Assembly: GCA_964569575.1 (NCBI GenBank)
Contig: CAZMTL010000002.1
Location: 19,618-83,617, forward strand
Length of the DNA stretch: 64,000 nt
DNA from: an uncultured Gammaproteobacteria bacterium
Lineage (GTDB): Bacteria > Patescibacteriota > Patescibacteriia > UBA9934
Reading direction: 5' to 3'
Shown here: in pieces, positions 25,512 through 61,100 of the stretch
How positions within the stretch are numbered: the stretch's first letter is position 1
Layout of the letters: each line of letters begins with the position of its first letter
Translations under genes and position numbers: made by a program
Notes under the pieces: generated by a model
Databases searched by the model: none
The model's input: the letters and a program-made list of their open reading frames with translations, nothing else
Told to the model about the DNA's origin: nothing

Positions 25512-25571
25512 GATTACAAAAAAGTGAAAAGAGAGCCACAAAAACAGCACATTTTCTGCTATAATACAGGC

Positions 25572-26450: not shown

Positions 26451-26454
26451 CCCT

Positions 26455-27678: not shown

Positions 27679-27682
27679 TGCT

Positions 27683-28291: not shown

Positions 28292-28292
28292 T

Positions 28293-29822: not shown

Positions 29823-29825
29823 CCT

Positions 29826-31094
29826 ATGTTCACCTGCACACACTGCGATGCGCAAAGTCTTAAGTGGCAAGGACGATGCACTGAATGCGGAAAATGGGGT
29901 TCGCTTGTGGAGGAAGCAGCAACATCATCAGCAAAAAAACCAACTGTAAAATCAAAACCAGCTTCAGTCATTGATTTTAAAAACGCCACAACAAAAGCTG
30001 TTACTCATGCAAAAACGGGCATCGACGAATTAGATCGAGTTCTTTCGGGCGGAATCGTTTCAGGATCCGTCATCCTTCTCGCCGGTGAACCAGGGATAGG
30101 GAAATCGACCCTCGTCGCTCAACTTGCAGGACTCTTCCCTACCTCAACCTACTACGTTTCCGGGGAAGAATCGGAAGGACAAGTTATGATGCGACTGGAA
30201 CGTCTCAACATTCCAACCACAAAACTTCTCTTCTCAAACGCCATCGAATTAGGCAGCGTAATCGAAACAGCAAAAACCCAAAAACCGGGACTGCTTATTG
30301 TTGACTCCATCCAAACCATGCTACCCGACCAGGTAGAAAACATGCCCGGAACTCCTACCGCCGTCCGCGCTGCAACCTCACAACTTGTCGAATTTGCAAA
30401 ATCAACAAACATCCCAGTTCTCCTAATCGGACAAGTCACAAAAGAAGGAAACGTCGCAGGACCAAAAACACTCGAACACCTTGTCGACACAGTATTAACA
30501 CTCGAAGGCGATCGTCAAACTTCGTACAGAATTCTACGCGCAACCAAACATCGCTTTGGGACAACGGACGAAGTAGGCGTGTTCGAAATGACAGAAAAAG
30601 GAATGATTGCTGTTGAAAATCCTTCTGCGAAATTTCTCGCAGAACGCCAAGCAACTCCTGGATCCGTCATCACCTGCATCATGGAAGGAACGCGACCATT
30701 CTTAGTCGAAATCCAAGCTCTCGCTGAAAAATCAGTCTTCGCAAACCCGATTCGCCGAACTTCAGGCTACGACACAGGTCGCCTTCAAATGCTACTTGCG
30801 ATCATCGGAAAACGTACCGGCGTCAGTGTTAGCGGCCATGACGTCTATGTAAACGTTGTGGGAGGAATGAAGGTAAAAGAAACCGCAACAGATCTAGCCG
30901 TAGCAGCAGCCATCATTTCGTCCGTCAAAGACAAAATGATCACCAAAGATGCCGTCGTGATCGGCGAACTAGGCCTAGGTGGAGAAGTCCGATCGATCCC
31001 CTTCTTAGACAAGCGCCTAAAAGAAGCATCAAGACTAGGACTCAAAGAATCCCTGAATCCAAAAAATACAAAGAATTTAAAAGAACTTATCTAA
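29826..31094 (+). CDS. radA: DNA repair protein RadA (Sms)
   Basis: CxxC-x10-CxxC zinc finger, GEPGIGKST Walker A, KNRFG, Lon-like C-terminal domain; 422 aa. Confidence 0.92.
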   Translation: MFTCTHCDAQSLKWQGRCTECGKWGSLVEEAATSSAKKPTVKSKPASVIDFKNATTKAVTHAKTGIDELDRVLSGGIVSGSVILLAGEPGIGKSTLVAQLAGLFPTSTYYVSGEESEGQVMMRLERLNIPTTKLLFSNAIELGSVIETAKTQKPGLLIVDSIQTMLPDQVENMPGTPTAVRAATSQLVEFAKSTNIPVLLIGQVTKEGNVAGPKTLEHLVDTVLTLEGDRQTSYRILRATKHRFGTTDEVGVFEMTEKGMIAVENPSAKFLAERQATPGSVITCIMEGTRPFLVEIQALAEKSVFANPIRRTSGYDTGRLQMLLAIIGKRTGVSVSGHDVYVNVVGGMKVKETATDLAVAAAIISSVKDKMITKDAVVIGELGLGGEVRSIPFLDKRLKEASRLGLKESLNPKNTKNLKELI

Positions 31095-33344: not shown

Positions 33345-33421
33345 TGGTGCACCCGGCACGACTTGAACGTACGACCCTCAGCTCCGCAAGCTGATGCTCT
33401 ATCCAACTGAGCTACGGGTGC
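33345..33421 (-). tRNA. tRNA-Arg, anticodon GCG (CCA encoded)
   Basis: Hand-folded: GCACCCG/CGGGTGC acceptor; D-arm GCTC-AGTTGGATA-GAGC (A20); anticodon stem TCAGC/GCTGA; loop TTGCGGA; T-arm GTACG-TTCAAGT-CGTGC; A73; CCA. Confidence 0.75.
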
Positions 33422-34156: not shown

Positions 34157-34246
<90 letters not shown>

Positions 34247-34952: not shown

Positions 34953-35042
34953 TGGCGGAGAGGAGAGGATTCGAACCTCCGAGGGATTTGACTCCCTGCC
35001 ACGTTAGCAATGTGGTGCCTTCGGCCACTCGGCCACCTCTCC
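34953..35042 (-). tRNA. tRNA-Ser, anticodon GCT (long variable arm; CCA encoded)
   Basis: Reverse complement GGAGAGGTGGCCGAGTGGCCGAAGGCACCACATTGCTAACGTGG...GGAGGTTCGAATCCTCTCCTCTCCGCCA; loop TTGCTAA. Confidence 0.75.
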
Positions 35043-39510: not shown

Positions 39511-40239
39511 CTACCCGCGACCAAGCGAGAATACATGCACCCGCTTTACCCCTGAACGCTTCAATGCGCGCGCAGCGGCCGAAGCCGTTGCCCCCGTTGT
39601 CCACACATCATCCACCAATAAACATCGTTTCGAAGAAAAATCAGAACAAACCAAAAACGGCGAATTCTCCATTTCTAACTTCCGCGCCTGATCACTGCGC
39701 TCCACCTGCCGACCCGTCGAACGTACCCGAACGCAACTCTCCACAACAGGCAAAGAAAACGCAGCACCCAAGTGCTCGGCAATCAATCGAGACTGATCAA
39801 ATCCCCGTTCGCACAATCGTTGAGCATGCAACGGAACATACGCGATTGCATCAATTTTTTGAAATTGTAAAAAAGGCTCTAATTGAACTAAATAGAGACC
39901 AAACTTTCGCTGCAACAACTTCCAAGCAGAATCATCGTAAAAATATTTCCAAGCATGAAGAAGTTCACGAAAAACCGGATCCGCATACACAAAGGCAGAT
40001 TGAACAGAATCAGGTAACAGCTCTTCTCTACATCCAACACACGCAAAACCATACGGTGAAGAAGCGGCGCAAACAAAACACACCGCATGCGGAACAGTTG
40101 GCACCCACGAAACAAAACAATCACCACACAACAAATCCCCTTCCCGCGAACACCGAACACAAAAACGCGGAAAAACAGCCTCCTCCAAAACGGAAACAAG
40201 CTCTTTTAGTCGACCCATGCAAATGAATTCACAAGCCAA
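39511..40239 (-). CDS. comFC: ComF family protein (ComFC-type phosphoribosyltransferase)
   Basis: N-terminal CxxC...CxxC zinc finger; C-terminal LLVDDVWTTGATASAAARAL PRTase motif; about 235 aa. Confidence 0.75.
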   Translation of the reverse strand: MACEFICMGRLKELVSVLEEAVFPRFCVRCSREGDLLCGDCFVSWVPTVPHAVCFVCAASSPYGFACVGCREELLPDSVQSAFVYADPVFRELLHAWKYFYDDSAWKLLQRKFGLYLVQLEPFLQFQKIDAIAYVPLHAQRLCERGFDQSRLIAEHLGAAFSLPVVESCVRVRSTGRQVERSDQARKLEMENSPFLVCSDFSSKRCLLVDDVWTTGATASAAARALKRSGVKRVHVFSLGRG

Positions 40240-40763
40240 CGATCACCACTTTTCACTAACTCAATTTCAATATCTTGGTAGCGTACAGACGTATTCGAAG
40301 GACTATCAATGGACTCACTTCGCTGTGTTGTGACTCGATATCGAACCGCTTCCGCTGTTTCCGAAACCGTGTTCATCGCGATCACACGTGTCGAAACACC
40401 ATAATATCCGCCAGGCGTTGTCGCGAGCGATTCATTGGTCAAATTTCCAAGCGACGCTTGAAGCGAAGGACTCGAAAGCGCAGCAACATCATCCACATTG
40501 GCAAAATCCACATCCGTTGAATAACTAGCGTATCGCTCGACAAATGAACGCGCAATCACATTCGAAGGCGAAGTCATCGTTCGGCTATCAACTTCCGTCA
40601 CACGCTCAATGCGCGCTCGCTCTTCTTCAGTCAATTGGTCTTCAGGTAACGGAACTTCATCTATCGCACCGTCACGTCGCAAAAGCAAGAAGAGAATCAA
40701 TGCAATCAATCCTGCAATAATCAGCACCGCACCAATCACTTCGAACATGGTTTTTCTTGTCAT
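40206..40763 (-). CDS. Bitopic membrane protein, possibly VirB8-like (N-terminal TM + NTF2-like-looking C-terminal domain); inference only
   Basis: MTRKTMFEVIGAVLIIAGLIALILFLLL TM; C-terminal ...VRYRVTTQRS...YQDIEIELVKSGDRWLVNSFAW. Located immediately downstream of virB4. Confidence 0.3.
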   Translation of the reverse strand: MTRKTMFEVIGAVLIIAGLIALILFLLLRRDGAIDEVPLPEDQLTEEERARIERVTEVDSRTMTSPSNVIARSFVERYASYSTDVDFANVDDVAALSSPSLQASLGNLTNESLATTPGGYYGVSTRVIAMNTVSETAEAVRYRVTTQRSESIDSPSNTSVRYQDIEIELVKSGDRWLVNSFAWVD

Positions 40764-40768
40764 AAAAT

Positions 40769-42766
40769 CTATTTTGGAGAAATAGGAATACTACTCGATC
40801 CCTGCACTTCAGCTCCATCAAGTGCATTTTTCGAACTATTCGGTTTTACCTCATCTTCGTCATCCGTAAACGATGAAGCAAATTCCTTTTTCGCACGCTC
40901 AATTTCGAGCAACTGCTCAGGATTCGTCGTAACCAATTGATCTTCAGTATACGAAGCGACAATTTTAATCGCCGCATGCTTCGGTCCAGCAAAGAAAATC
41001 CCCTCCCCTACAGCCGCTTCAAGCAACAAATATTTTTCACTCTGAGTTAAATTAAACGTGGTCGCAATACGCTCCACTCCCGCCGGCGACTGCTTTAGTA
41101 ACAATTGAAGCGACGAGTTTGTCACAATCGCCTGCCCATACGCGTTCCCCAAGAAGTCGTTCACGTCCTGGGTAATAGTCGTTACTCCTAAATAATACTT
41201 TCGAGCACGCTTCACAAGCGCAAAAATAAACTTCGCCGAATCTTCGTATTGCATCAGCCACCAAGCTTCATCAATCGCCAACACGCGCTTTCGACGACTA
41301 GATCGCACCACATTCCAAATATAGTTTACGATGGTATAAATCGCGATCGGTCGCAATTCATCTTCCAAGTCTCGCACCGAAAAAATCACCAGCTGATTAT
41401 CCATCTCCACGTTAGTCGGCGAATTCAACAATCCAGAAAACGTTCCCTGTGTATACTTACGCAAACGCGCAACCAATTCCTTCGTTCCTTCCATTCCCTC
41501 CAACACTTCTTCCAAATCTTGCAACACCGGAAATTCAGCCGTTGCTAAATTCTGCATCGGAATATCGGAAGTAATATCTTTTTTCGCATACGACTCAATC
41601 AGTGCACGGTCTAACATCGAATCTTCTTCCGGCGTAAATCCAATCACGCCAGCCCCACCCTGCGGCTGACCAATCATAATACGCAACAATCCCTTCAAGG
41701 TAATCACCGCACTTCTCAAAATATCTTCCACCGACGTTTCTTCCCCGACAGGACGTGGTAAATCGAACGGGTTAATTTTTGCTTCGGAAGCAAGCGAAAC
41801 ATTCACGAATGTTCCCCCAACCGCGTCTGAAAGATTGCGATACTCCATTTCCGGATCGATAATAATCACGTCCGTTCCCATCATCAAACTACGCAATACT
41901 TCCAATTTTACCGCATAACTTTTTCCGGCACCGGACGTCGCAAACACGACCGAATTCGCATTCTGCAACGAAAAACGATCAAACAAAATCAACGAATTGT
42001 TATGACGATTAATCCCGTACAAAATCCCTTTATCGCTCGTTAAATCAGAAGAAATAAATGGAAACGAAGAAGCGATCGGTGACGTGTTCATGTTGAACGT
42101 AATCATCAACTCGTCGTTACCAAGCGGCATGGTGGAATTGAAGCCTTGTTCCGATTGATAAAACCCACGCTTCGAATAAATCAACTTCGCACCAAAAATA
42201 GATTCAATGTCTTCAGTACGCTTATCAAGCTCTTCTTTATCCTTCGCGTACACCGTAATATAAAAAGCAAACTGGAAAAAGTGCTCAATCCCCTGTGTTA
42301 AATCGTCACGCAATTGTTCCATATCGCGCAACGCGGTTTCGCGAATCGGATCACGCGGCGCTCCTTTTTCGTTGTCCGAAATAATCTGTGCCTCCACAAT
42401 ACCAACACGGTTTCGCAACTGCTTCAAAATAACCGGTGATTCTACCGGATAAAAAAACATCGCAATGTCGAGCGTTCCATTATAATTGATCACCGGCGCA
42501 CCCCATCCAATCCCAACGTATCGCGGATACGTCACCACAAACAATGTGCGAATATACGTATTTCCTAACAACAAATGATCAGGATTTACCTGAAAAGAAG
42601 CCGGAGCAATCAGATCGCGAACCGTAACAGTTCCACGTCGATACACGCGCTCTTCTTCAAGGGTCGCCTTTTCTTGAACAACACGTTCTTGCTCAGGCGT
42701 AAGCGGCTTCGCCTCTTGCGGCGCAGCCTGCTTCTTTTGATTCAAGTCATTAATATCAAATGCCAT
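40769..42766 (-). CDS. virB4: VirB4/TrbE/CagE-family type IV secretion ATPase (ATPase portion)
   Basis: VFATSGAGKSYAV Walker A, VLAIDEAWWLM Walker B, VirB4-like C-terminal region; 665 aa. Confidence 0.8.
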   Translation of the reverse strand: MAFDINDLNQKKQAAPQEAKPLTPEQERVVQEKATLEEERVYRRGTVTVRDLIAPASFQVNPDHLLLGNTYIRTLFVVTYPRYVGIGWGAPVINYNGTLDIAMFFYPVESPVILKQLRNRVGIVEAQIISDNEKGAPRDPIRETALRDMEQLRDDLTQGIEHFFQFAFYITVYAKDKEELDKRTEDIESIFGAKLIYSKRGFYQSEQGFNSTMPLGNDELMITFNMNTSPIASSFPFISSDLTSDKGILYGINRHNNSLILFDRFSLQNANSVVFATSGAGKSYAVKLEVLRSLMMGTDVIIIDPEMEYRNLSDAVGGTFVNVSLASEAKINPFDLPRPVGEETSVEDILRSAVITLKGLLRIMIGQPQGGAGVIGFTPEEDSMLDRALIESYAKKDITSDIPMQNLATAEFPVLQDLEEVLEGMEGTKELVARLRKYTQGTFSGLLNSPTNVEMDNQLVIFSVRDLEDELRPIAIYTIVNYIWNVVRSSRRKRVLAIDEAWWLMQYEDSAKFIFALVKRARKYYLGVTTITQDVNDFLGNAYGQAIVTNSSLQLLLKQSPAGVERIATTFNLTQSEKYLLLEAAVGEGIFFAGPKHAAIKIVASYTEDQLVTTNPEQLLEIERAKKEFASSFTDDEDEVKPNSSKNALDGAEVQGSSSIPISPK

Positions 42767-42768
42767 AC

Positions 42769-43473
42769 TTAAAATCCGTCCTCAACGCGCAATTCGTTCA
42801 CGTTGGTTAATTTTTCATTATCGTACACGTCCGGGTTGTACACCGTGTAATACAACTCAATCAGCCCCTGTGTATCGAGTACCACGCTCTTCAATCCCAT
42901 TCCGTTCAAGCCCCCTTCCACAATACTGACACGCTGCATTAACGCCTGTTTGCGCTCTTTAAATTGCTTGGCATTCAACTTCACCACCGAAGCCGGCACA
43001 AGCGCACTCGAAATACGAGAAAAAAATCCATTCTTTTTATCGCTCGCCGTACTATACGGAACAACAACATAAAAACGCTTCTCCATAATCTCGCCCAAAT
43101 CCACCAAATCCTTCACGAATGCACGGTAATCTTTAATTTGCGTACGTAACAATTCATTCGCAATCTTTTCCTCTTGTTCAATTAAATAATTCATGTACCG
43201 ATCAACGTTCATCTTTCGTGACTGGATAACGATTTGCAAAGGATGTTCCAATCCATTCAAAAACTGCATGTACGACTGAATAGTCGCCTGCTGTTCATCA
43301 ACTGATTTAAGCGCAAAATTAATCGACGATACCATCATAACGGCACGCAACGTACCATCCTTCAAGATCACCACATTCTCTCGAATTTCGGCAATATCCA
43401 AATATCGCTGAGTCGGAGGACCTGGTTTTACTTTACTAATTTTTTTGGATTGCATTTCGTTCGACTTTGCCAT
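42769..43473 (-). CDS. VirB4 N-terminal-domain-like protein (split VirB4, translationally coupled to 40769-42766)
   Basis: Stop TAA at 42769-71 and downstream ATG at 42766-64 (2-nt gap). Sequence ...QRYLDIAEIRENVVILKDGTLRAVMMVSSINF... resembles VirB4/TraC N-terminal domain; combined length about 900 aa. Confidence 0.45.
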   Translation of the reverse strand: MAKSNEMQSKKISKVKPGPPTQRYLDIAEIRENVVILKDGTLRAVMMVSSINFALKSVDEQQATIQSYMQFLNGLEHPLQIVIQSRKMNVDRYMNYLIEQEEKIANELLRTQIKDYRAFVKDLVDLGEIMEKRFYVVVPYSTASDKKNGFFSRISSALVPASVVKLNAKQFKERKQALMQRVSIVEGGLNGMGLKSVVLDTQGLIELYYTVYNPDVYDNEKLTNVNELRVEDGF

Positions 43474-43474
43474 A

Positions 43475-43954
43475 TTAAAGCAGTTGTTTCGAAGTAACCG
43501 GATCAATAAGAATTTCTTGATCAACGCCAGATTCGTACACGCCACCCGTATTCACCACCAACGCCAATTCAGACAATTTTGATCGTTCCAACCCACGTTT
43601 CACAGGGACAGGCGGAGGAAGAACTTCAACGTCTTTTTTCAGACGCATCTTCAAATCAGAATCGAGCAACGTCTTATCCCAAACCCGCAGCATCGGCTTG
43701 CGCAACGTTTGCACCATATTCAAAGCAATATAATGAAACGGCCGCCCATTCACCCGCGCAAACGCAAAGACCACGCCAATCACCAGCACCGGAATTCCTA
43801 ATAAAAGAAAAATAATGATGCTCGAAAAAAGACTATAGATAAAAAATTCCACCAAAATAACCGCAAGCAAAATCAAAAACTGCCGACCAGTAATCGGACC
43901 AATAATCTTCGACTCGACATCAAGAAATTGTGGAACGACAAATTGCTGCGCCAT
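43475..43954 (-). CDS. PrgI/VirB3-like small two-TM protein
   Basis: MAQQFVVPQFLDVESKIIGPITGRQFLILLAVILVEFFIYSLF...LLLGIPVLVIGVVFAFARVNGRPFHYI; stop 1 nt before the VirB4-N ATG. Start at 43954 rather than track start 44278 (which runs into the repeat region). Confidence 0.5.
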   Translation of the reverse strand: MAQQFVVPQFLDVESKIIGPITGRQFLILLAVILVEFFIYSLFSSIIIFLLLGIPVLVIGVVFAFARVNGRPFHYIALNMVQTLRKPMLRVWDKTLLDSDLKMRLKKDVEVLPPPVPVKRGLERSKLSELALVVNTGGVYESGVDQEILIDPVTSKQLL

Positions 43955-44047
43955 GCCTTCAGTATAACACGAAAACAAAAACCAACAGGGATAATAAAGT
44001 GGATAGAAAAAGAGAAATTTAAACCCGACAGCAAACAAAGAAGCGAT

Positions 44048-44097
44048 CAACGCGTAACCACCCCTAGCCCCTCCTTGTGGATCTAAGAAGGAGGGGG
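44048..44097. repeat. Direct repeat copy 1 (caacgcgtaaccacccctagccc + GC hairpin cccctcctt...aaggagggg)
   Basis: Read directly; 9-bp perfect stem cccctcctt/aaggagggg with 11-nt loop. Confidence 0.7.
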
Positions 44098-44565
44098 AAC
44101 GAGCTCGATTTTCGCCGAGAGATTGCTTCGTCGCAAGACTCCTCGCAATGACCAAGTCGAGGCGCATAGATCCTTCACTTCGTTCAGGATGACAAAGTCG
44201 TTTGTTCTGATGTCCTTCCCGCACGAAGAGAGGCGAAGCCGAACGCCAGCGGAGCTCAACGCGCTGTGACAAAGGCACTGTAACAAAATCACGCGAAGGT
44301 CGAGCAGTTCGTCGAACCGGCTGGAGGGGGCCTGACCCCCGTAGGACCGGTGTAGCGAAAAGAACTGCGATCGGTCACTTTCCATAATTTAAAAAATGAA
44401 GCGTGCCGCCGAGCCACGAAAGGCTCTTTCTTTTGCCTACTTCTCTTTGAGCCAGCAAAGAAAAGTAGGTCGGGGTTCGGGGGTGAAACTCCCGATCGCT
44501 GTGACAAAGTCGAGTGTAACAAAATCAAAGCGGCGGAGTCGCGTCAGCCTCGCGGGCACACACGA

Positions 44566-44607
44566 CCAACGCGTAACCACCCCTAGCCCTTCCTTGAAAA
44601 GGAGGGG
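44566..44607. repeat. Direct repeat copy 2 (caacgcgtaaccacccctagccc + hairpin ccttcctt-gaaa-aggagggg)
   Basis: Same 23-nt leader and same hairpin arms as copy 1 but with a GAAA tetraloop; copies about 520 bp apart. A second internal repeat pair (gctgtgacaaag..tgtaacaaaatca..gcg) lies at about 44263-44300 and 44498-44537. Confidence 0.7.
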
Positions 44608-44694
44608 GAAGCGCTTGCGAGAACCGATAGATCCCGGATCAAGTCCCGGATGACGAGAAATGAGAGCTCGATTAACGCAGAAGCGTCACCCTTT

Positions 44695-47019
44695 TTAAAA
44701 CTTCATCTTCTTATTCAACTCCACAATCGCCTGCACCTCGGCAGGAGAAAGCGATTCTTTCCCTTCATTTCTACGATCAGTCGCAATTTCCGCAAACGAA
44801 CGCCCGGCTGTAAGCGATTCACGCGCCATATCTAAATACAACCGATTTACCGGACTCTTGCGCCAACCAGCAACACCAGCAATACGCTGTTCGTAGGCCG
44901 TCGCCTGCAACAACATTAATTTATCCAAAATCTTGCGCCCTGCTTCTTTAGGATCGCTACTCAATCGTCTAAATTCAGAAACCGTCATTGTCCCCAATTC
45001 CTCCACAGGCCCAACCAATTTCTTCACATACGAAACATCCGTCACCTTCCCACCAGATTCTTTATGAACAGGCGCCGCACTTCCAGCGCTCACAAACGCC
45101 TTCGCTTTCTTTGGTCGAGCAGAAACTTCTGCCTCAACAAGAGCCTGCGAACTCACAGAACCTCCCTGCAACTTCAGTTCCTCCTCTTTTGTTCGCGCAG
45201 CACTTACGCTTGCATGCGGAAGCACCGGCTCGACAGATTCTGTCGAACGACTTTTCGTTAACGCAGAAAAACGCTGATCAAGCACCTGGCGCTCTGCTGT
45301 ATCAAAATCCTTCTTCACCTCAGGTACAGCTTTCACTGGCATTTGATGCACACTCGCACGTTTCGCAGCCAACACCACACGCGCAGCATCTTCGTGAGTA
45401 AACGAAAACTTATCAATCAAATACCTCTCCGCTTGATGCAATTCACGCGTTCCTCGCACTACCGAAGCAATCACATCACGAGCCTGCTTTTCTTCAACGG
45501 TATATTTATTAAAGATCTCTGAAGTACTTCGGTACACTTCTTCCACAGTCGTCTCGATAGAAGTAGCCGCAGGAGCAACAGCACGTCTCTGCATCTTGCG
45601 CTTCTCGGCAAGCACCTCCTTCTCTTCCTCTGGTCCAAGCATCATCGAGGCATCTTTCGCTGCAACCACCGAAACGCGTTCGAGCGATTGCGCAGGAGAA
45701 CGCACCGAAAGCGGGCGATCAAACTGTACAGGCGTCTTTTTTGCCTTTATCTCAACCGCAACATCAGGCCCAGACATCATACGCGTCCGTTCCTTGCTTA
45801 ACTTAGCTAAAATATCGCCTGCTTCTTCTTTCGAAAAACCGTGAACATGCTCCAAAATCTGCCGCGTCTTCCCCTTCGAACGCCCTTCGTGCAAAAACCC
45901 GATCGTTAAATCTTTATACGCCACTTCGGACAAACCTTTATTTAGAAAAGTAGCGTGAATCGACTCAAGCGAATCACCCGCATCAACAGTCTGATTTACA
46001 GCACCACGGTCAATAGGAACATCGCGCCAATTCGAAGGTACATCAAGCGCCGCAAATAACGAATCCCAAGACAAATCTTCATCGTCAACCGGAAGCTGAA
46101 CGTCGGGCGCAGGAGCTGTATCACGTGAAGAAAAAAGAGCCATAAACTGATTCCAAACAGCCGCCTTCGATCGCTCGAGTGGTACATCGCTCGCAACATG
46201 CACATCTGTTCGACCAATCTGAACAGACTGATTTGCGCCACTCAACGTAGATTTATACCGATCCGCTTCGCGCTTTGTTAATACCCCAGGCTGTCTGCGC
46301 TGTAACGTCGTCGGACCACCCACTTTAAATACATAAGCAGGATCATCGGCCGCACGCGCAGGCAACCTCGAATCCAAAGACGGTTCAACGACAGGCGCTT
46401 CTGTTTCCAAATCCGAAACATCAGACACATCGAGCGCAAATTTCTTCCCTTCTTTATCGAGCGCATCCAAAAATTTCTCCGAAACAGCCGCATCCAACTC
46501 CATCCCACCAACCGAGACAGGACGACCAAGTGTATGCAAAATAGATTCCTTCGTTCGCGCCTTGGTTAAATACGAAGTAGCCAAGTAAATCAACCGTCGC
46601 AACAAATGTTCCGACAAATTCATCCCCCACTTCTGCACCATGTGACGCACAAACTCGTCGGGAGAAATTTGCTCCTTCTCAACTACCTTTGTTTCATAGT
46701 GCGTCACATCTCCTCCCAAATGCGAAATCTCGGCAACCACGGTTGGTAAATATAACTTCAACGGCAACAACACCATTCCCAAAAAATCCGCCGTCACTTC
46801 CTTCGACTTCGCCTCTTCCAGTCCAAACGCCGCCCGAATCAATTCCTCAACGCCCGTAATTTCCAAATTCCCCCGCACCACCGCATCGCGTAAATCTAAA
46901 AACTCCTCCAACCGATCGGCCGGTAACTGATGCTTTTCAACTAACTGCCTAAGTCGACTAAACACTGAAACGTCGAGCACATAAACAGCAACTGGCTTGT
47001 AAACACGTAAATCCTCCAT
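44695..47019 (-). CDS. Large hypothetical soluble protein (774 aa) inside the T4SS-like cluster
   Basis: Long ORF, no TM, no P-loop found by eye (GRSKGKT is G-x3-GKT, not a Walker A); no assignable motifs. Confidence 0.5.
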   Translation of the reverse strand: MEDLRVYKPVAVYVLDVSVFSRLRQLVEKHQLPADRLEEFLDLRDAVVRGNLEITGVEELIRAAFGLEEAKSKEVTADFLGMVLLPLKLYLPTVVAEISHLGGDVTHYETKVVEKEQISPDEFVRHMVQKWGMNLSEHLLRRLIYLATSYLTKARTKESILHTLGRPVSVGGMELDAAVSEKFLDALDKEGKKFALDVSDVSDLETEAPVVEPSLDSRLPARAADDPAYVFKVGGPTTLQRRQPGVLTKREADRYKSTLSGANQSVQIGRTDVHVASDVPLERSKAAVWNQFMALFSSRDTAPAPDVQLPVDDEDLSWDSLFAALDVPSNWRDVPIDRGAVNQTVDAGDSLESIHATFLNKGLSEVAYKDLTIGFLHEGRSKGKTRQILEHVHGFSKEEAGDILAKLSKERTRMMSGPDVAVEIKAKKTPVQFDRPLSVRSPAQSLERVSVVAAKDASMMLGPEEEKEVLAEKRKMQRRAVAPAATSIETTVEEVYRSTSEIFNKYTVEEKQARDVIASVVRGTRELHQAERYLIDKFSFTHEDAARVVLAAKRASVHQMPVKAVPEVKKDFDTAERQVLDQRFSALTKSRSTESVEPVLPHASVSAARTKEEELKLQGGSVSSQALVEAEVSARPKKAKAFVSAGSAAPVHKESGGKVTDVSYVKKLVGPVEELGTMTVSEFRRLSSDPKEAGRKILDKLMLLQATAYEQRIAGVAGWRKSPVNRLYLDMARESLTAGRSFAEIATDRRNEGKESLSPAEVQAIVELNKKMKF

Positions 47020-47028
47020 GTATCAAGT

Positions 47029-49860
47029 TTAAGGGGTTCCTGTAGAGCCTGGCGTTGGCGTTGACGGCGTCCCAGAAGTTGCCATACCCGGAGCCGATCT
47101 AATATCTCGAGCTACCAAATTAGCATAATCCTTCAAACGTTCACGCTCTTCGCTCTTCCGAATAACAACCGCTCCTTTTCGAGCAGCCACCGCATCATCT
47201 GCTCGAAGTACACGCATAACATTCATAACAGCAGCTTGAATATCTTTTAATTCAGTAGCATTTGCACGCTGTGCGCGCGAATGCAAATCACTAAGTAATT
47301 TTGAAGCATTCTGAGCAATCACCTTTCCGGCATCAGTATGATTACCGCCACCCGTCAGCGAAGGCGTAGACAACATCTTCGCATCAAATTGGGCAACAGC
47401 GGCAGGAGCTGTAGAAATAACTTGTTGCAACAAAATTGGATTAGCAACAGAACCCGTCGCAGAATTAACCTCCACGTCGTTCAAATTACCTGTTGATAAA
47501 TATTTAGCTTGCTTATATTTACTCTGTTCAGCTAGCGAAAGAGTGTTGGAAGCCTGAATAGCATCGATCTTCGCGACAAGAGCATCTCGAACATCAGTCG
47601 CCATATCACTCAAATCCGCTCCACTCACAGCCGCATCAACCGTAGCCTGAACAACACGCCGAGCCTGTTCTTCTGCTTTAGGGTCTGTAGCAGAGCCAGC
47701 AAAATCAAGTGCCGCGATTGGATAAACGCCTGCTTTGACTTCTTCGTCGGTGACCGGCCTCAAAACAGCCTGCTTAGCTCCAATAGCCTCGCTCATTTTT
47801 TGAATATTATTACTTACGGCAGGATTATAATTCTTATTCTGACTAAGCTTAGACAAGTAATTTTGGACGTCTTTATTAACGCCGCCAACGCCAGTATTTA
47901 ATTGATCCAGTGCAGTAGACGCGGTTCGTTTACCACCATTCTCCTGGTCATTAAAGTAACCCATGACTCGCTCATCCAAGGCATCAAGAATCTTTTGATT
48001 AGGCACTGTCTTATATTTCTTTGTCTGAGGATCCATAACGTATTCACCCGTCTTCGGATCAACATAAAATTCCTGCAACGATTCCGCCGAAATCATGCTT
48101 GTCTTGAAACGTTCATCTGAAATAACCTTTTTAACATCTTTTTCATCAAGCAAATGCAAATTTTTAACCTTTGCTTTATACAAATTATCGCTGAAAGACT
48201 TGTCTTCCGCTCCAAAAACCTCTTCCTTCGCATCAGCAACCTTAAGAGCCTGTTTCATTGCAAGATCATAACGCTCTTGTCCTCCAGGTTCACCATACTG
48301 CTTCTGCAATCGTTCCTTCAATCGCTTCTGCTCAAACTTATTTTGCATTAAATTTGAAGCAATAAACATTGAAAACGCTTGGTCACTTTCGTTAAGCTTA
48401 CTAATATCAAAACCAGGCGTCATCATGCGCTCATAATCCATCGCGCGCTGCGTATCGCTTCGAGATTCATATCGCTTCTTCGCCGAATCACGAACAGCAT
48501 TTTCTTGTAACTCAAGTCGATTTTCAGCCATTCCTGCTACATTGGATGTAGCACGCCCAACGGCAGCCAAGGGAGCGAAGGAACTTTGAGCTTGTCGCTC
48601 TCCAAATCTAACAGCATTCTGAGCGTAATCTTTGAAAACTGCAGGAGCGCCTGTACGCCGGTACCCTGCATACGCACCCTTCCCTGCATAATTTGCACCC
48701 GTCGCCAATGTTCGACGCGCAAGCATAGTCGCCATTCCTCCATCCGCCGAAATTGCTTTCGCAGCAAACCCTCCAACCGAAGAAGCTTGCTGACTTGCTG
48801 TCTGAAAGCCAACCATAATCAAAGCAACTCCAACAATCACTCCCATAATCTGATCAAGTGAAAATACTTCAACCAAAAAGTCTGATTCAAAATAATTTCC
48901 ACTTGCGTCTAACTGAGGATCAAACCCAGCGTCTGTGGCAATCGATCCACTAGACGCAACTGCTAGCCCAAGCCAAAGGAAAAAAAGCATGATTGGACCA
49001 AACGCAATCGCGCCAGTCAATCGCTTCCACCAATCTCCGTAGACTCCCTGCAACCCCCCAAGCGTCGCACCCACGCCTTGCGCAAAAAACGCCAACGGTG
49101 AAATAACAATCAAAATCCAAAGTACAACAATGCGATACATCAACGCTGCCGTTAACAAAATAAGCGTAGACGCAACCAGCGCAAGCAGCCAAACCATCGC
49201 AATGGTTGTACCAAGCAATTTAAACGCCTCGATTCCAGAACCAACCGTACCAGCAACTAAACCAGCGTCTTCATTCAATTCGTAAAATCGGCTAAGATTA
49301 AAAAATTCGGCAAAATTCCCTGCCCCTACTTCCGAAATCGCATTAGCAAATGTCACCATGATCACCTGACCAATATCAATCATGAACAAAGTGATCGTCT
49401 TTGAGAAATTCATCGCAATCACAGCGATAAATAATTTCGGCAATTGCTGCTTCCAATCAACTCGACCGGCACCAACCATTGTTTGAACCGCAATCACGAG
49501 CAAAATTACAATCACGAACATGTTCATCAAGTCTCGCACCAACTGCCAACCAACCAACACAACCTGACTACTTCCAAATGCATCATACTGAATCAACGTC
49601 AGCATGATAGAGATAAGCAAAACAATTAATTGCCCAAGCATCCAGGCGATCACGTTAAAGATTCCAGCAATCAAACCCATCAATGTATTTCGAGCAGTAG
49701 CGGTAATCGCTCCAAGTGTATCGCTTTGAGCCAAAACAACATCAGCGCCCCCGAAAACTCCCCCAACAATAACCGCACTCAAAATAAAAAAACTTAAAAA
49801 CAATCTGTGTTTGAACAGAAAAACGCTTGCCTGCGAAAACCATGTACGCAACCGGTTCAT
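47029..49860 (-). CDS. VirB6/TrbL-like polytopic membrane protein with about 550-aa hydrophilic C-terminal extension
   Basis: Start at MNRLRTWF (49860): signal-like segment, then at least 7 hydrophobic helices over about 400 aa, then long soluble region rich in A/K/Q. Confidence 0.45.
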   Translation of the reverse strand: MNRLRTWFSQASVFLFKHRLFLSFFILSAVIVGGVFGGADVVLAQSDTLGAITATARNTLMGLIAGIFNVIAWMLGQLIVLLISIMLTLIQYDAFGSSQVVLVGWQLVRDLMNMFVIVILLVIAVQTMVGAGRVDWKQQLPKLFIAVIAMNFSKTITLFMIDIGQVIMVTFANAISEVGAGNFAEFFNLSRFYELNEDAGLVAGTVGSGIEAFKLLGTTIAMVWLLALVASTLILLTAALMYRIVVLWILIVISPLAFFAQGVGATLGGLQGVYGDWWKRLTGAIAFGPIMLFFLWLGLAVASSGSIATDAGFDPQLDASGNYFESDFLVEVFSLDQIMGVIVGVALIMVGFQTASQQASSVGGFAAKAISADGGMATMLARRTLATGANYAGKGAYAGYRRTGAPAVFKDYAQNAVRFGERQAQSSFAPLAAVGRATSNVAGMAENRLELQENAVRDSAKKRYESRSDTQRAMDYERMMTPGFDISKLNESDQAFSMFIASNLMQNKFEQKRLKERLQKQYGEPGGQERYDLAMKQALKVADAKEEVFGAEDKSFSDNLYKAKVKNLHLLDEKDVKKVISDERFKTSMISAESLQEFYVDPKTGEYVMDPQTKKYKTVPNQKILDALDERVMGYFNDQENGGKRTASTALDQLNTGVGGVNKDVQNYLSKLSQNKNYNPAVSNNIQKMSEAIGAKQAVLRPVTDEEVKAGVYPIAALDFAGSATDPKAEEQARRVVQATVDAAVSGADLSDMATDVRDALVAKIDAIQASNTLSLAEQSKYKQAKYLSTGNLNDVEVNSATGSVANPILLQQVISTAPAAVAQFDAKMLSTPSLTGGGNHTDAGKVIAQNASKLLSDLHSRAQRANATELKDIQAAVMNVMRVLRADDAVAARKGAVVIRKSEERERLKDYANLVARDIRSAPGMATSGTPSTPTPGSTGTP

Positions 49861-49993
49861 AGATAGGTACAGTATAACAAATTTTCGCTCACTCTTGTGA
49901 AAGTTTTGCACATGCAACCGAAAGAAAAATCCCCACTTCTTCCAAACGCCGTTTGCGTGCAGAAAAAGTAGGGATCAGTTGAGCGAACACGAC

Positions 49994-52450
49994 TCAGGGA
50001 GCCGTCAGTACACCGAAGACAGGGACGTGTGACTCGTAGCCGTCGACCGTTCCTTCGTTCGGAACCGTCGAGAACATGACGTCGCCCGGATTGGTACCAC
50101 TCGACACAGGCACGCCATCGAACGGCGCACCAGCATGGCGGTACACACGCGAAGCCCACGAAGGAAGTGCGTCGTCTTCGTGAAACACGAAGCCGAGACG
50201 ATCACACACGTACCCAGGTCGGAACAGGTACGCGTTGAATTCGACCGAGTCTTCCTGCAGTAGAAGCGAGAGGTGCAGTCCCGAGGGCTCGACGCCGTAA
50301 CACTGAGAAATGGCAACCAAGCGGTCACCACCCCCAAACGCCACCACGCCACCCGCCTGCCCCGAACAGCCCGAACCGTACGTGGGATTGGTGCACAAAT
50401 CGGGCGGATAGAGCGTGATCACGCGTCCATCCGTCACCCACTGCGCACCAGGCGAAGCAGAGCCGTAGCGATGTTCGAAATCGCGATACACCTCATGCAC
50501 GCCATTACCATCGATATCAGCGACCACATTCGGCCACTCGCGGTAGTACCGCTGAAGCGTCAGTCGACCGTCTTCGTCCACCGCGCCGTCGCAGTCGTTG
50601 TTCGCCAAGTCCCACAGCTCGACGTGTCCCGGGTGAATTGCGGCATTACTGTCCACGCAGTCCCCGGTACACAAGCCGTATCCGTCGCCATCCACATCCG
50701 CACACCCCGCGTCAGTGTCGGTGTCCGAATCAGAATCCGCATCACTGTCTGCATCCGCGTCAGAATCGGCATCCGCATCACTGTCGGAGTCTGCGTCAGA
50801 ATCCGAATCGGCATCGCTATCCGCATCTGCGTCCGTGTCAGCATCCCCTTCTGCACAACCGAGTTCGGAATGATCCGAAGCTCCGTTGCAATTGAGGTCA
50901 CCATCCACGTAATCACACATGCTCCACCCCAGTCCCGCGAGCGGCGCACCTGGATACGAGTATTCGTACCCGTCGTCGCAATCACCCTGACAGGTGGTGA
51001 AGCCATCGAAGTCCGAGTCCGGACACAAATCGCCCGTATCGGCGTCTGCATCAGAATCGGCATCCGAGTCAGCATCGCTGTCCGCATCTGCGTCGGAATC
51101 TGCGTCGCTATCCGAATCCGCATCCGCGTCGGCATCCGACTCACCCAGCAAGGAAACCCACTCGTCCGCAGGTCCTCCACAGGTGTACACGTCCTGCTCG
51201 GTCAAGCAAAAGTAATCCGTGGCGCAATCGCCCACACGCCCCTGAACCGCCGTGATGGCACCGTCCAGAACGTGCAGAATGTCGCGATCACCAAAACCGA
51301 GCAACAAGTACGTCGACCAGTTCGCGATCGGCATCGCAACGCCGTCCGAAACCAGGTAGACGGTAGGCGTATGTTCTTCGCGCATCACCGTTCCGTCCCG
51401 AAATTCCGCCAAAGCGAAGTCCGAAACGTACTGCGAATACGAAGCGATCTGCGCCGGCACCGCCAGTTCGGACACCGAATTGATCGACATCCCCCAGCTC
51501 GCCAACACCTCACGCCAGTATTCGTGCGGAACACGCAGACGACGCTTGGCACCACCCTCACCGAGCAGCAACCACACCTCGCCTGCGTCGTGCACGGCAT
51601 CCACCGACCAATCCCCATTAACCATGCCACCCGTTTGGTAGCAGGCGAATTCCTGAGGAGAGATCACTTCCACGTTCCGGAAGTCGAATTGACCACCCCA
51701 GAACACCGACTCCGACACGAACGGTCGTAGCACACCTTCCTGCAACCAATACACCGTGCTCGAAGAAGGCTGCTTCACCAACATCCCGTTTGGATGCCAG
51801 CGAGGCGTGCTCAACCGCGAACGGTACAACCGCCCACCCGGCAGTGCACACACCATGTCACTCACAGGGTAACCAGCTTCGATTCCCGTTAGAACATCGG
51901 ACGCATACACGTCCAAGCCCTCGATCGAAGTTCCGTACACCGCATCCTGCCGTGCGTTCCCCTGGTGACGCCCCATGTGGACATGATCACCCGTCGACAT
52001 CCCCGTCGTTCCTTCGTATCCGATCAACGAACCGGCCGCCACCTGCGTACCGTCCGCCACGAACACGTCAGAGAGATGCCCAAGCAACACGTACGTACCG
52101 TCCCCCATCTCGATGTTCACATGAATGCCGAAATTGGTATTCGGCGAATCCTCGTGAACGAACGCCGTGCCCTCGACTGGCGAGTACACCAGATCACGCC
52201 GGTCGTTCGGCGTGTCGAGATCGACGTCGTACCGCGTGCTGTTCCCGCTATGCGAGAAATCACCACCCGGACCCTGAACACACATGCTGGTGTAGCCGTA
52301 GTCGAACGGCATATCCACCATCACCACATCCTGCCCACCACCAACGCCACCGGTCTGATCCCAATCCTCCAAGCCACCCGGCATACGCCAGCAGCCCGAG
52401 TTCAGAATCAGAATCAACAGCAGCATCAGCACCTGAAGATGCTTTCGCAT
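49994..52450 (-). CDS. Secreted (possibly lipoprotein) peptidase M23 (LytM-type) with long Asp/Ser/Ala acidic repeats and Cys-rich CxxDCDD...NDCDG repeats; encoded in GC-rich DNA
   Basis: MRKHLQVLMLLLILILNSGC signal; M23 motifs ...GHLSDVFVADGTQVAAGSLIGYEGTTGMSTGDHVHMG (HxH); runs of DADSDSDADSDADAD; GDCVDSNAAIHPGHVELWDLANNDCDGAVDE repeat. Confidence 0.65.
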   Translation of the reverse strand: MRKHLQVLMLLLILILNSGCWRMPGGLEDWDQTGGVGGGQDVVMVDMPFDYGYTSMCVQGPGGDFSHSGNSTRYDVDLDTPNDRRDLVYSPVEGTAFVHEDSPNTNFGIHVNIEMGDGTYVLLGHLSDVFVADGTQVAAGSLIGYEGTTGMSTGDHVHMGRHQGNARQDAVYGTSIEGLDVYASDVLTGIEAGYPVSDMVCALPGGRLYRSRLSTPRWHPNGMLVKQPSSSTVYWLQEGVLRPFVSESVFWGGQFDFRNVEVISPQEFACYQTGGMVNGDWSVDAVHDAGEVWLLLGEGGAKRRLRVPHEYWREVLASWGMSINSVSELAVPAQIASYSQYVSDFALAEFRDGTVMREEHTPTVYLVSDGVAMPIANWSTYLLLGFGDRDILHVLDGAITAVQGRVGDCATDYFCLTEQDVYTCGGPADEWVSLLGESDADADADSDSDADSDADADSDADSDADSDADADTGDLCPDSDFDGFTTCQGDCDDGYEYSYPGAPLAGLGWSMCDYVDGDLNCNGASDHSELGCAEGDADTDADADSDADSDSDADSDSDADADSDADADSDADSDSDTDTDAGCADVDGDGYGLCTGDCVDSNAAIHPGHVELWDLANNDCDGAVDEDGRLTLQRYYREWPNVVADIDGNGVHEVYRDFEHRYGSASPGAQWVTDGRVITLYPPDLCTNPTYGSGCSGQAGGVVAFGGGDRLVAISQCYGVEPSGLHLSLLLQEDSVEFNAYLFRPGYVCDRLGFVFHEDDALPSWASRVYRHAGAPFDGVPVSSGTNPGDVMFSTVPNEGTVDGYESHVPVFGVLTAP

Positions 52451-58123: not shown

Positions 58124-61100
58124 TTATCGTGGCGAAACAAGAATCACTCCATCAAACTCTATCCAAGGGTCAATGCCAGGCTCTAAAACATCCGGAAAAG
58201 CTTGATAATCACACTGTACGCGTTCCGTTGGATCAGTACCTAGCCCGGCTGTACTGTTCGTATCCACCGTCCCCTCAAAACATCCATCCTCTCCATTACA
58301 CGTTCCTGCACACCATCCCCAGTTATCACGAACGTGAACTTTTGGCTTAAATGCACATTGTGCAGTATCGCCTTCACCTACACGACAAGGCGTGTTTGAG
58401 TAGTCAGCGTTACACACCGACGTGCCAGGAAGAGTTACAGCGTTACAAGTATACGTATGCGTATACGATAGATAATTCTCACTACATGATTCGCTTGTTA
58501 ATCCCCATTCGGAGTTAAGTGAACACAGCGTTGTGGATTCGTCACCTTGCACCAATCCACGGTGATTTCGGAAGAAGTTGTCTTCTGAAGGTGACCCACT
58601 TTCATCACCATCACCCCAATCCACAATCACACGTCGAATCGGCAACTGATCAGGCAACGCGAAGGCAAAGAAGTTTGCTGTTACTCGCAAGAATCCGCCC
58701 TGTCCGATAACCGTTCCAGAATTTTGACCATTTACGGTAATTGTATCTTCCTGACCTTCTTCACACAAATCCCCGAAACATCGATCCGTATTCAATCCTC
58801 GAACGCGCGGAGGACCACCTTGAGCCGCACGCACATCCCACAGCGCTCGATCAGCCTCTGCCAATTCACCTCCAAGAGAATCCTCGACAGTGTACTCAGG
58901 AGCATACTCAGTAGATTGCCAGTTCGCTGCCGGCGTAATCAAATCTTGAGTCCAAGTAAACCAATCCTGAGTGTCCGGAAGGTTCAAACTAGCAAACATC
59001 TGCGTCGCACGGGCATAGAAGTTGTTTGCTGGATTTGCCTCGACAGTCCAGAAATCAACCAGGTCATCGAAAGCTACATCTTCGTAATCATAACCGAAAT
59101 CCATCAACGATGAGATTTCAGGATCTGAAGGAACATGGCCGTCTACTCCATAAAACAGCGCACCACTCTCCATTTCTTCGTATGGGTACACACAGTTTAC
59201 TGTCGTAGGGGCCGCAAGATCATTCAACCAAGCACTTTCTTCAGAAGAACTTTGGAAACTTGTTGAAGCAGTACTAGAAGTTGTATCAAAATTAATATTC
59301 GAATCGTACACAGGTGCATTTGGCAATGGAGTTCCTGGAGCAAACTCATTGTCTGCCTTATTCGCGATACACGCACCGATTCTTAACGGAGCTTTTTCAA
59401 GTAAAGTATCCGAAGCATTAATAGCGGAAGGCGAATACTTCGCGGCACCTGCAATATTATCTGCTCCAAAAGAATAATTCATTCGAGGATTATTCGATGC
59501 AATTACGCCGCCTTGGAAAAGCTTATTTGTAAACGCATATCCCTCCCCAGAAGACGAAGACACTTGCAATAAATCTTTACAGGCAGGATAAACATCAAGA
59601 TTGATATAAGCATGTCGATAACGTCGGTTTGCTGTTATTGCAACATCTTCGTTTGTACGGAAATCATAAATGCTATCCAACTGATCCGCCGCAACACCTG
59701 GAAGCACACAATCCTGATAAGCATTCAACACAGCACTAAACGCTTGAATCTGCTGCGCACCTCCATCATTGCGATCATTCAAAGGCTGACTAGTAGCTGC
59801 CCATGTATAAACCTCGTTGCCAAAGTTACTAGTACGAACACCACCATTAATAGCAGATTCGGCACCTTGTAGACCGTCTATCGCGGCAGCCACAGCATCA
59901 TCTGAGCTTGGCGCAAGACATTCACGCTGCTCCAGATTTTCATTCGCCTCGGATGCATGGAAAGAATTTTTCGGAATACAGGCGTATGGACAATCGTTAT
60001 CAGAACCATCTCCGGCACACATACCTGCGGCACCACCAAAATTCGCATTTGGTGCTGGCTGACCCACCACGGCGAAATATCCTTCAGGACAAGCTGCATT
60101 CTGCCAACAACCATCAGCATTAGAAGTAAGTCTTTGATAACTATTATTGACGTTGACTCCTTGAACTCCTGGAGCTTCTGCACAGGCAACGCCTGGCTGA
60201 TTCGCATTATTCGACAACTGAATATCACTCGTCCTCAAATTCGCGAACAGGCGAACGTCTGAACACACGAATGTGTCTTCGAAGAATCCGGCTGTTTTGT
60301 ATTTTGCGTACAAATCAGTTGTTCCCTGCAATTGATCTACTGGGTACCAAGTAATACATGCTCCAACATCTGTTGTTCCATCAATATTAATTGACGTATC
60401 ACGCTCCAAACAGAATCCTTCCATTCCATAGAGGGTATCGAGTCGGTTAATTGGCTGACAAACGGCTCCAGAATCAACATCTCCACAGTCAGTGTCTTCG
60501 GTACAAATCGAACCAGCAAGCGCTCCACCGCTACACACTCCAGAATACGGAGTTGTTGAATCGTATGGATCTGTATCCAAATCTAAGTACGCAAATTGAT
60601 TACTCGAATCCGAAATCTTCACATACGAACACATACAGTCTTCACCCGGCGCGCAGAAATTCGCATTTTCGTAGCCGGAAACTGTCGAGAACGGCGAAAC
60701 AGAAGATTGATTTAGACCACCGCCAACAATTGGATCACCAACTTCCGACGACGACTTAGGCACGCCATCTTTTCCAATCCATTGTGTAACAAGCGAAGAA
60801 TCAAACGGACTTGTCGCTTCTGGATATGCGCGACAAATATGAACTTCACCGCTATCTTCCGCGATTTGCTCACCATCTACTCCCACAACACAACTATCGC
60901 GGTAGCAAGTTCCTTCCGTAGTCGCAACCGACTGGAAACACACGCCCGCTCCACACGATCCATTAATACACGTTCCCGCCAAACTACAATCTCCCACATC
61001 GTTATAACAAGTTCCGGCAACAAACACCTGACCAGCCGAACAATCTGCTTGGCTGTCGGCACCCGTTGATCCAACTGAATAATATTCACCAATAATACAA

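Follow-up and report, generated by a model that had tools for sequence, protein, structure and literature searches.

Evidence for a chromosomal type IV secretion gene cluster of the Patescibacteria clade, closed by comFC, in a Candidatus Uhrbacteria-type genome

We analyzed a 64-kb stretch of DNA (hereafter the window) from the 138.8-kb contig CAZMTL010000002.1, which carries a gene cluster resembling a type IV secretion system (T4SS); the absences reported below hold for this window only. Eight intact open reading frames (ORFs) follow one another in an operon-like row on the minus strand, from position 52450 to position 39511 (Table 1). They encode, in this order, an M23 peptidase, a VirB6-like polytopic protein, a 774-aa protein (p774), a PrgI/VirB3-like protein with two transmembrane (TM) segments, TrsD, a VirB4 ATPase, a VirB8-like bitopic protein and ComFC, and a repeat-filled spacer lies between the genes of p774 and PrgI. 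The relatives used for comparison came from a one-genome-per-species collection, in which 416 VirB4 relatives were found, and the best 80 of them were mapped for synteny.

Table 1. Position and main characteristics of the cluster genes and of other relevant features of the window.
Feature	Coordinates	Strand	Characteristics
M23 peptidase	49994-52450	-	818 aa; Pfam Peptidase_M23, E 2.9e-13
VirB6-like polytopic protein	47029-49860 (ORF to 49917)	-	943 aa from ATG; 962 aa full ORF
p774	44695-47019	-	774 aa; no family match
Repeat-filled spacer	43955-44694		740 nt
PrgI/VirB3-like two-TM protein	43475-43954	-	159 aa; Pfam PrgI
TrsD, N-terminal VirB4 segment	42769-43473	-	234 aa; weak TraC match in Pfam; NCBIfam TrsD
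VirB4 ATPase, CD1110/MPF_FATA type	40769-42766	-	665 aa
VirB8-like bitopic protein	40206-40763	-	185 aa; window protein without family match
ComFC	39511-40218 (ORF to TTG 40239, 242 aa)	-	ComF family
VirB2-like pilin + VanY/M15-like domain	28293-29822	+	509 aa; Pfam T4SS_pilin
RadA	29826-31094	+	Pfam KaiC/AAA_25/Lon_C/zinc ribbon; conserved context, not part of the T4SS
RecG helicase	31146-33221	-	Pfam RecG_wedge, DEAD, Helicase_C; conserved context
ComEC	16445-17920	-	library match to the competence domain

The VirB4 ATPase scored above the cut-off of the NCBIfam model conju_CD1110 (344 bits vs. 325, E 1.4e-102, positions 171-729 of 752), and it also matched P-loop_TraG (8e-26), AAA_10 and DUF87 in Pfam. 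Its nearest solved relative was the C-terminal domain of VirB4 (PDB 4ag5, E 2.6e-51), and its Walker A motif reads ATSGAGKS. Hence, the first-pass annotation of this DNA was right in calling a VirB4 and not an ATPase of the FtsK/HerA type. The ORF located just upstream, which had been read as the N-domain of a split VirB4, is separated by 1 nt from the stop of PrgI and by 2 nt from the ATG of VirB4, exactly the junctions first described. In NCBIfam this ORF matched VirB4_plasma (the VirB4 of mycoplasma integrative and conjugative elements) at positions 91-240 (1.2e-10), the TrsD/TraD family (1.2e-4) and the CD1110 model at positions 6-138 (3.5e-4). Since the CD1110 matches of the two ORFs fall at positions 6-138 and 171-729, respectively, the ORFs correspond to complementary stretches of full-length VirB4; the split was therefore well seen, and by these profile matches the 234-aa N-domain ORF is TrsD. 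We also considered whether TrsD is a paralogue of the first 260 residues encoded by the VirB4 ORF, and rejected this: the hhalign comparison was non-significant (E 0.11), and complementarity fits instead. The PrgI-like protein encoded upstream, whose true start is the ATG at 43954, scored above the Pfam PrgI cut-off (31.5 bits vs. 27) and has its two TM segments within aa 16-70, in agreement with its first reading as a PrgI/VirB3-like protein; it is conserved in 77 loci.

The division of VirB4 into two ORFs, together with a spacer that breaks the gene row, could be taken as a sign of degradation, so that the whole cluster would be decaying and non-functional. The relatives speak strongly against this explanation. 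In 74 loci TrsD and VirB4 are encoded by individual ORFs, most of which lie 1-10 nt apart, and their three relative frame offsets are nearly equally frequent (22, 24 and 28 loci), which rules out a frameshift or a sequencing error as the origin of the split. The split is universal among the relatives and the two-gene arrangement is also present on Firmicutes plasmids, with TrsD being a named family in its own right. Furthermore, the eight ORFs are intact and show 26-82% identity to their orthologues, and the spacer is intergenic and interrupts no gene. We therefore regard decay of the cluster as highly improbable.

The spacer had been noticed in the first reading as a repeat-rich region of 650 bp; the repeats are there, and the length has to be corrected to 740 nt. 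A hairpin element occurs in it twice (44044-44077 and 44563-44596), together with several other short palindromic units, and the repeats spuriously extend the PrgI ORF to 267 aa, where they translate into strings such as HPERSEGS. The gap between p774 and PrgI measures 1-195 nt (median 23) in 67 related loci, and the repeat was not found in 81 related loci. No Rfam family matched the spacer, and its transcript is predicted to be unusually structured (RNA fold z = -4.3). The spacer is a local insertion of repeats, similar to repetitive extragenic palindromes or miniature inverted-repeat transposable elements (REP/MITE-like), which is specific to this genome and not a conserved part of the system.

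The assignment of the VirB8-like protein came from its family and its predicted structure. A Pfam VirB8 match was obtained with 4 of its 76 orthologues (best 6e-5) and with the family consensus (1e-3). The AlphaFold2 model, built from 41 sequences (mean predicted local distance difference test score, pLDDT, 87), begins at the N-terminus with a membrane helix, which a poorly ordered linker connects to a curved sheet of four strands with helices packed against it, i.e., an NTF2-like domain. When this model was compared with the PDB by Foldseek, structures of the VirB8 family were among the best matches (E 5e-6 to 4e-4), including TrwG/VirB8 of R388, CagV, PrgL of pCF10, TraH of pIP501 and TcpC, as well as the VirB8 proteins of Rickettsia, Bartonella and Agrobacterium tumefaciens, with other NTF2-like proteins interspersed among them. 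Thus, structure prediction bore out the initial VirB8-like call, and at the level of the modelled fold the 185-aa protein is confirmed as a VirB8. The last gene of the cluster had been taken for comFC, and this reading stands: its product matched TIGR00201 comF (3.5e-24, below the strict cut-off of that model), the phosphoribosyltransferase domain Pribosyltran of Pfam (29.1 bits vs. a cut-off of 26.3) and the double zinc ribbon DZR_2 (1.2e-4), and it carries CxxC pairs and a VDDVWTTGAT motif. With the probable ATG at 40218, the comFC gene overlaps the stop of the VirB8-like gene by 13 nt. When starts were called heuristically in 70 loci, comFC began inside the upstream gene in 54 of them, and no farther than 20 nt from it in 61.

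At the other end of the cluster, the M23 protein has an N-terminal signal or lipoprotein-like peptide, followed by acidic DS/DA repeats and Cys-rich motifs, and in addition to its Pfam match (Table 1) it gave NCBIfam PG_M23 and Sdr-like repeat matches. This agrees with the peptidoglycan hydrolase first proposed here, and the protein is a candidate for the VirB1 role. The M23 gene heads the cluster in 41 related loci, and a terminator-like hairpin (52918-52897) precedes it. The G+C content of the region 50001-52000 is 0.60, vs. ~0.45 around it; the tandem acidic DS/DA repeats of the gene are located at 50700-50864 and 51021-51155, the Cys-rich motifs are of the DxDxDG type, and the long antisense ORFs over the gene (e.g., 50273-51730, plus strand) are compositional artefacts.

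The VirB6-like protein, whose gene most likely starts at the ATG at 49860 (the longer ORF reaches a TTG at 49917), has ~8 hydrophobic helices in aa 30-372, followed by a ~570-aa hydrophilic tail rich in lysine and alanine. Hence, the polytopic topology with a huge soluble tail that had been described at first was confirmed, while the VirB6/TrbL identity proposed with it is probable and unproven by sequence. The Pfam TrbL/VirB6 model matched 1 of 47 orthologues (5.5e-5; 1.2e-5), and it matched neither the window protein nor the consensus sequence; the window protein had no NCBIfam match either. PDB profile searches with the whole protein and with the TM part gave nothing, a tblastn search against plasmids gave no match, and a hidden Markov model (HMM) search revealed no sequence similarity to the polytopic protein of a Pontibacillus megaplasmid, the Firmicutes relative described below. 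The position of the gene is the slot that the polytopic protein occupies in this relative, and it lies upstream of the p774 gene in 58 loci. In our view the 943-aa protein is probably an "extended" VirB6, a type that has been reviewed (PMC12857230).

The first-pass annotation had left p774 as an unknown, and it matched no named family in any of the family libraries searched. We read it as a soluble cytoplasmic protein: it has no signal peptide, and a hydrophobicity scan flagged one short borderline segment (aa 80-98). Word-indexed searches with its sequence or with a 64-sequence profile were swamped by low complexity and recovered no more than p774 and a single partial match. An exhaustive HMMER search uncovered a large family, whose members are typically 550-650 aa long: 2135 cluster representatives passed E<=1e-3, and 1527 of these also passed E<=1e-10; the p774 of the window is ~190 aa above the median length of its orthologues. 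The best conserved regions are the ~200-aa N-terminal domain and the final 110-280 aa, and the middle is variable. AlphaFold2 predicted four domains of p774 with confidence (aa 1-195, 349-415, 488-557 and 667-774; pLDDT >90 for the most part), all of them purely helical and joined by disordered linkers, and no fold match was found. In a distant relative (L083, 3218-5892) the family is represented by two adjacent genes, one for the N-domain (438 aa) and one for the C-domain (450 aa), which sit between the VirB6-like gene and PrgI, and therefore the N- and C-terminal parts are separable modules. Its fixed place in the gene row speaks for p774 as a part of the machine, in which it would most likely be a cytoplasmic adaptor or assembly factor.

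We then asked how constant the locus is among the relatives. The best 80 of the 416 VirB4 relatives share 70-82% identity with the VirB4 of the window, and nearly all of them come from metagenome-assembled genomes (MAGs) labelled Candidatus Uhrbacteria or Patescibacteria group. The order M23, VirB6-like, p774, PrgI, TrsD, VirB4, VirB8-like, ComFC was found in essentially all of these 80 loci with sufficient flank, and the same gene row was present in two further metagenomic contigs that were reached via distant homologues of p774 and of the 185-aa protein. Beyond ComFC, many loci continue with RecG and then, on the opposite strand, with RadA, the pilin, a DsbA-like protein and a 469-aa protein. 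In the window, the cluster is flanked on one side by a class II aminoacyl-tRNA synthetase and an LD-carboxypeptidase, and on the other by ApbE, an NQR-type oxidoreductase, a major facilitator superfamily (MFS) transporter, tRNAs and RecG, and the housekeeping flanks also include the genes of RadA, ClpB and elongation factor G (EF-G). Because position and neighbours are conserved in ~80 species-level genomes and the flanks are of the housekeeping kind, we conclude that the cluster is a resident chromosomal locus.

This conclusion bears on a further explanation, in which the cluster would be an integrated conjugative element, whether complete or reduced to a remnant, as the homology of VirB4 and TrsD to the conjugative and plasmid systems of Firmicutes might suggest. 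No model of a relaxase, VirD4/TcpA, VirB9, VirB10, VirB11 or an integrase matched any sizeable ORF of the 64-kb window, and no VirB7 was found in it, so that the absences pointed out in the first reading (VirD4, relaxase, VirB7/9/10 and VirB11) extend to the whole window. A census of Walker A motifs in the window yielded only ClpB, RadA, VirB4, EF-G, EF-Tu and RecG, apart from two chance occurrences of the motif in an ORF of the EPSP-synthase family. Repeat boundaries were likewise absent from the window, and the G+C content of the cluster equals that of its surroundings, except for the repeat-rich M23 gene. With no adjacent relaxase and VirD4 module, and with a housekeeping synteny that is constant across the relatives, the earlier preference for a non-conjugative system over an integrative and conjugative element is upheld, and it is very unlikely that the locus is a mobile element or what is left of one.

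The system, including its link to competence genes, is already published (2023-2025), and the comparison with the T4SS-like loci of Patescibacteria that had been suggested for this cluster led to the same system (PMC12102498 and PMC10633639); our literature search found no paper specifically on the T4SS of Uhrbacteria. Quinonero-Coronel et al. (2025; PMC12102498) described a Patescibacteria clade of VirB4 that is sister to MPF_FATA, in which TrsD is the commonest companion of virB4, PrgI/VirB3 and VirB6 are encoded nearby, PF18895 pilins belong to the component set, some VirB1 homologues have M23 domains, relaxases are rare, and VirB8 homologues occur almost only in class ABY1, whose loci commonly include comF, recG and radA. 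The locus of the window is like these ABY1 systems in having VirB4 with an adjacent TrsD, PrgI/VirB3, a probable VirB6, a VirB8 and a PF18895 pilin, in being chromosomal and free of a relaxase, and in including comF, recG and radA; no essential difference was found. Specific to the window, or unstated in that paper, are the 740-nt repeat insertion, the pilin's fusion with an M15-like domain, the M23 gene at the head of the cluster, and the conserved 774-aa family.

A second point of comparison is Southlakia epibionticum, of the Saccharibacteria, whose T4SS resembles the conjugation systems of Gram-positive bacteria (Wang et al. 2023; PMC10633639). This T4SS is essential for epibiotic growth, has essential pilins, and lacks a recognisable relaxase or coupling protein, and the published tables list VirB4, an adjoining hypothetical protein, PrgI, large membrane proteins, an NTF2-like protein and PF18895 pilins. 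Strain ML1 (SEML1_0006-0019) thus shares with the window the order VirB4, TrsD-like, PrgI, the large neighbouring membrane proteins, the NTF2-like protein, the PF18895 pilins and the lack of a recognisable relaxase. It differs in having an array of six pilins inside the cluster, whereas the window has a single pilin gene 10 kb off; no coupling to comFC is reported for it, and essentiality has been shown only there.

Among Firmicutes, the MPF_FATA systems (trsC-trsD-trsE of pGO1, and the locus described next) resemble the window in their VirB4 of the CD1110 type, the separate TrsD gene, the PrgI-like gene for a two-TM protein upstream of it, an M23 hydrolase in the cluster and a pilin-like gene of the Mbov_0395 family. 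In contrast to them, the window has neither a coupling protein nor a relaxase, and it has p774, the VirB8-like protein and comFC in addition. The closest relative outside the candidate phyla radiation (CPR) is located on a Pontibacillus sp. megaplasmid typed as non-mobilizable (NZ_CP062975.1, 351801-361354; L081). This row encodes two pilin-like proteins, a 779-aa polytopic protein, a two-TM protein, a TrsD-like protein, a CD1110 VirB4 and a 1050-aa M23 peptidase, and no relaxase was found in the annotated 24.7-kb stretch around it. Its VirB4 is 37% identical to that of the window, and the polytopic proteins of the two loci have no detectable similarity. The Pontibacillus row adjoins flagellar genes.

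Taken together, these results lead us to read the locus, with a probability of roughly 0.88, as a chromosomal, non-conjugative T4SS of the Patescibacteria clade, related to MPF_FATA, in a genome of the Candidatus Uhrbacteria type (ABY1). The 80 nearest VirB4 relatives are all Patescibacteria-type loci, and 37% is the identity of the best plasmid homologue. Several points weigh against this assignment. The place of VirB4 inside the Patescibacteria clade is presumed from its sequence matches; the probable VirB6 call rests on topology, position and the Pfam match of one orthologue; and the function is extrapolated from Saccharimonadia and from conjugative systems. In addition, the window covers 64 kb of the 138.8-kb contig, and a coupling protein may be encoded in another part of the genome; VirD4 homologues lie far from virB4 in many genomes (PMC12102498). 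As for the labelling of the records, many MAGs with a T4SS of the Uhrbacteria type (loci L002-L080) are titled "uncultured Gammaproteobacteria bacterium", evidently an error introduced by the pipeline through which they were submitted.

The only pilin domain of the 64-kb window lies outside the cluster, ~10 kb from comFC and ~12 genes from virB4, in a 509-aa secreted protein (PF18895, aa 184-251, 2.2e-9; NCBIfam Mbov_0395 pilin-like, 3.6e-5). A weak VanY/M15-like match (E 0.0069) follows the pilin domain, so that the separate pilin fused to an M15 hydrolase, as first annotated, is retained, its hydrolase part on a weak match. In more distant relatives the pilin is present without the M15 part, and two pilin copies occur in one locus (L044). 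The pilin gene belongs to a plus-strand row (25524-31094) that encodes a 308-aa protein, a 469-aa membrane protein with a weak TolB-propeller match, a DsbA-like thioredoxin, the pilin/M15 fusion and RadA; the 308-aa and 469-aa ORFs overlap as listed, and the gaps after the 469-aa gene are of 1-4 nt. The distance from the pilin gene to radA is 4 nt, relatives keep these two genes paired, and the order RadA, pilin, DsbA, p469 recurs in four loci (L012, L055, L057 and L058). RecG is encoded between the cluster and the pilin block. The comEC gene, which had been noted elsewhere in the window, lies 21 kb from the cluster. ComEC is present as two overlapping minus-strand ORFs in 15618-17920, one with the DUF4131 and Competence domains (16445-17920) and one with the metallo-beta-lactamase domain (15618-16481), which may be a real split or a frameshift. 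The tight coupling of comFC and the nearby radA, recG and comEC suggest co-expression of the cluster with the pathway of DNA uptake and recombination. The role in DNA uptake or cell-cell contact that was first suggested from this linkage is a hypothesis.

If the components work as their counterparts in the better known systems, PrgI and TrsD would hold the VirB4 hexamer at the membrane, the channel in the membrane and the scaffold across the wall would consist of the VirB6-like and VirB8-like proteins, the M23 peptidase would open the peptidoglycan, and VirB4 would power the assembly of a pilin-based filament or channel. Because neither a relaxase nor a coupling protein is present, the cluster most likely does not conjugate. 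More likely, it mediates a contact-dependent exchange with a host cell, in which proteins or signals would be exported or host material taken up; the essential T4SS of S. epibionticum has been proposed to act in this way.

The competence linkage allows another explanation, which is DNA import. Here, the ABY1 T4SS would be the uptake arm of natural transformation, comparable to ComB of Helicobacter pylori or to the archaeal Ced system: the pilin filament or channel would capture DNA, ComEC would translocate it, and ComFC, RadA and RecG would process it. The overlap or close spacing of comFC and the VirB8-like gene in most loci, the conserved pilin-radA pair, and the vicinity of recG and comEC all point in this direction, as do the co-localisation noted for ABY1 in PMC12102498 and the absence of a ComFA-type ATPase from the window. 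Moreover, as related in a paper that cites Damke et al. (2022), ComFC of H. pylori acts downstream of a T4SS. The ComB system is indeed alike in being a T4SS without relaxase and coupling protein that is associated with ComFC and ComEC; it differs in being of the diderm VirB2-10 type with an outer-membrane core, the genes of which are not in the window, and the functional link in the present case would come from gene neighbourhood only. Other facts disagree with DNA import. The T4SS of Southlakia is essential, yet a comEC deletion mutant loses competence and is viable (PMC10633639), so that the essential role is not ComEC-dependent uptake; Patescibacteria have type IV pili, the usual uptake organelle; compact genomes often pack unrelated genes in one operon; and the match to the Ced ATPase is weak (CedB model, 8e-11, 41 bits, far under the cut-off of 700). 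We consider DNA import an unlikely role for this machine. The same doubt applies to its most elaborate form, in which the T4SS of Uhrbacteria/ABY1 would be wired into transformation, with VirB4/TrsD and the VirB8-like protein translationally coupled to ComFC and the pilin co-transcribed with radA, so that the machine would import host or environmental DNA and p774, or its two domains, would be an adaptor replacing the coupling protein.

Two other features of the window were recorded. Three tRNA genes (33348-33421, 34157-34243 and 34956-35042) lie between RecG and the MFS transporter gene. An ORF of 1946 aa (58124-63964, minus strand) gave a faint match to a carbohydrate-binding module, and its product is probably a large surface protein.

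The T4SS of Patescibacteria is among the few envelope machines that have been shown to be essential for epibiotic life. The window adds no new kind of system, and it offers a clean, fully syntenic ABY1 example of the published one. What it adds to that system is modest, namely the complementary profile coverage of TrsD and VirB4, the counts of comFC overlap, the genome-specific spacer, and the large unannotated p774 family as a fixed member of the locus; this family and the unusually tight coupling of comFC and radA are its main, if modest, interest. Three points are sharpened so that they can be tested: that VirB4 is a conserved two-piece motor composed of TrsD and the ATPase, that ABY1 has a genuine subunit of the VirB8 fold whose gene overlaps comFC, and that the helical p774 family, which lacks both annotation and a fold match, always belongs to the locus. 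If the linkage to competence genes were mechanical, it would mean a T4SS-driven route of DNA import in a monoderm.

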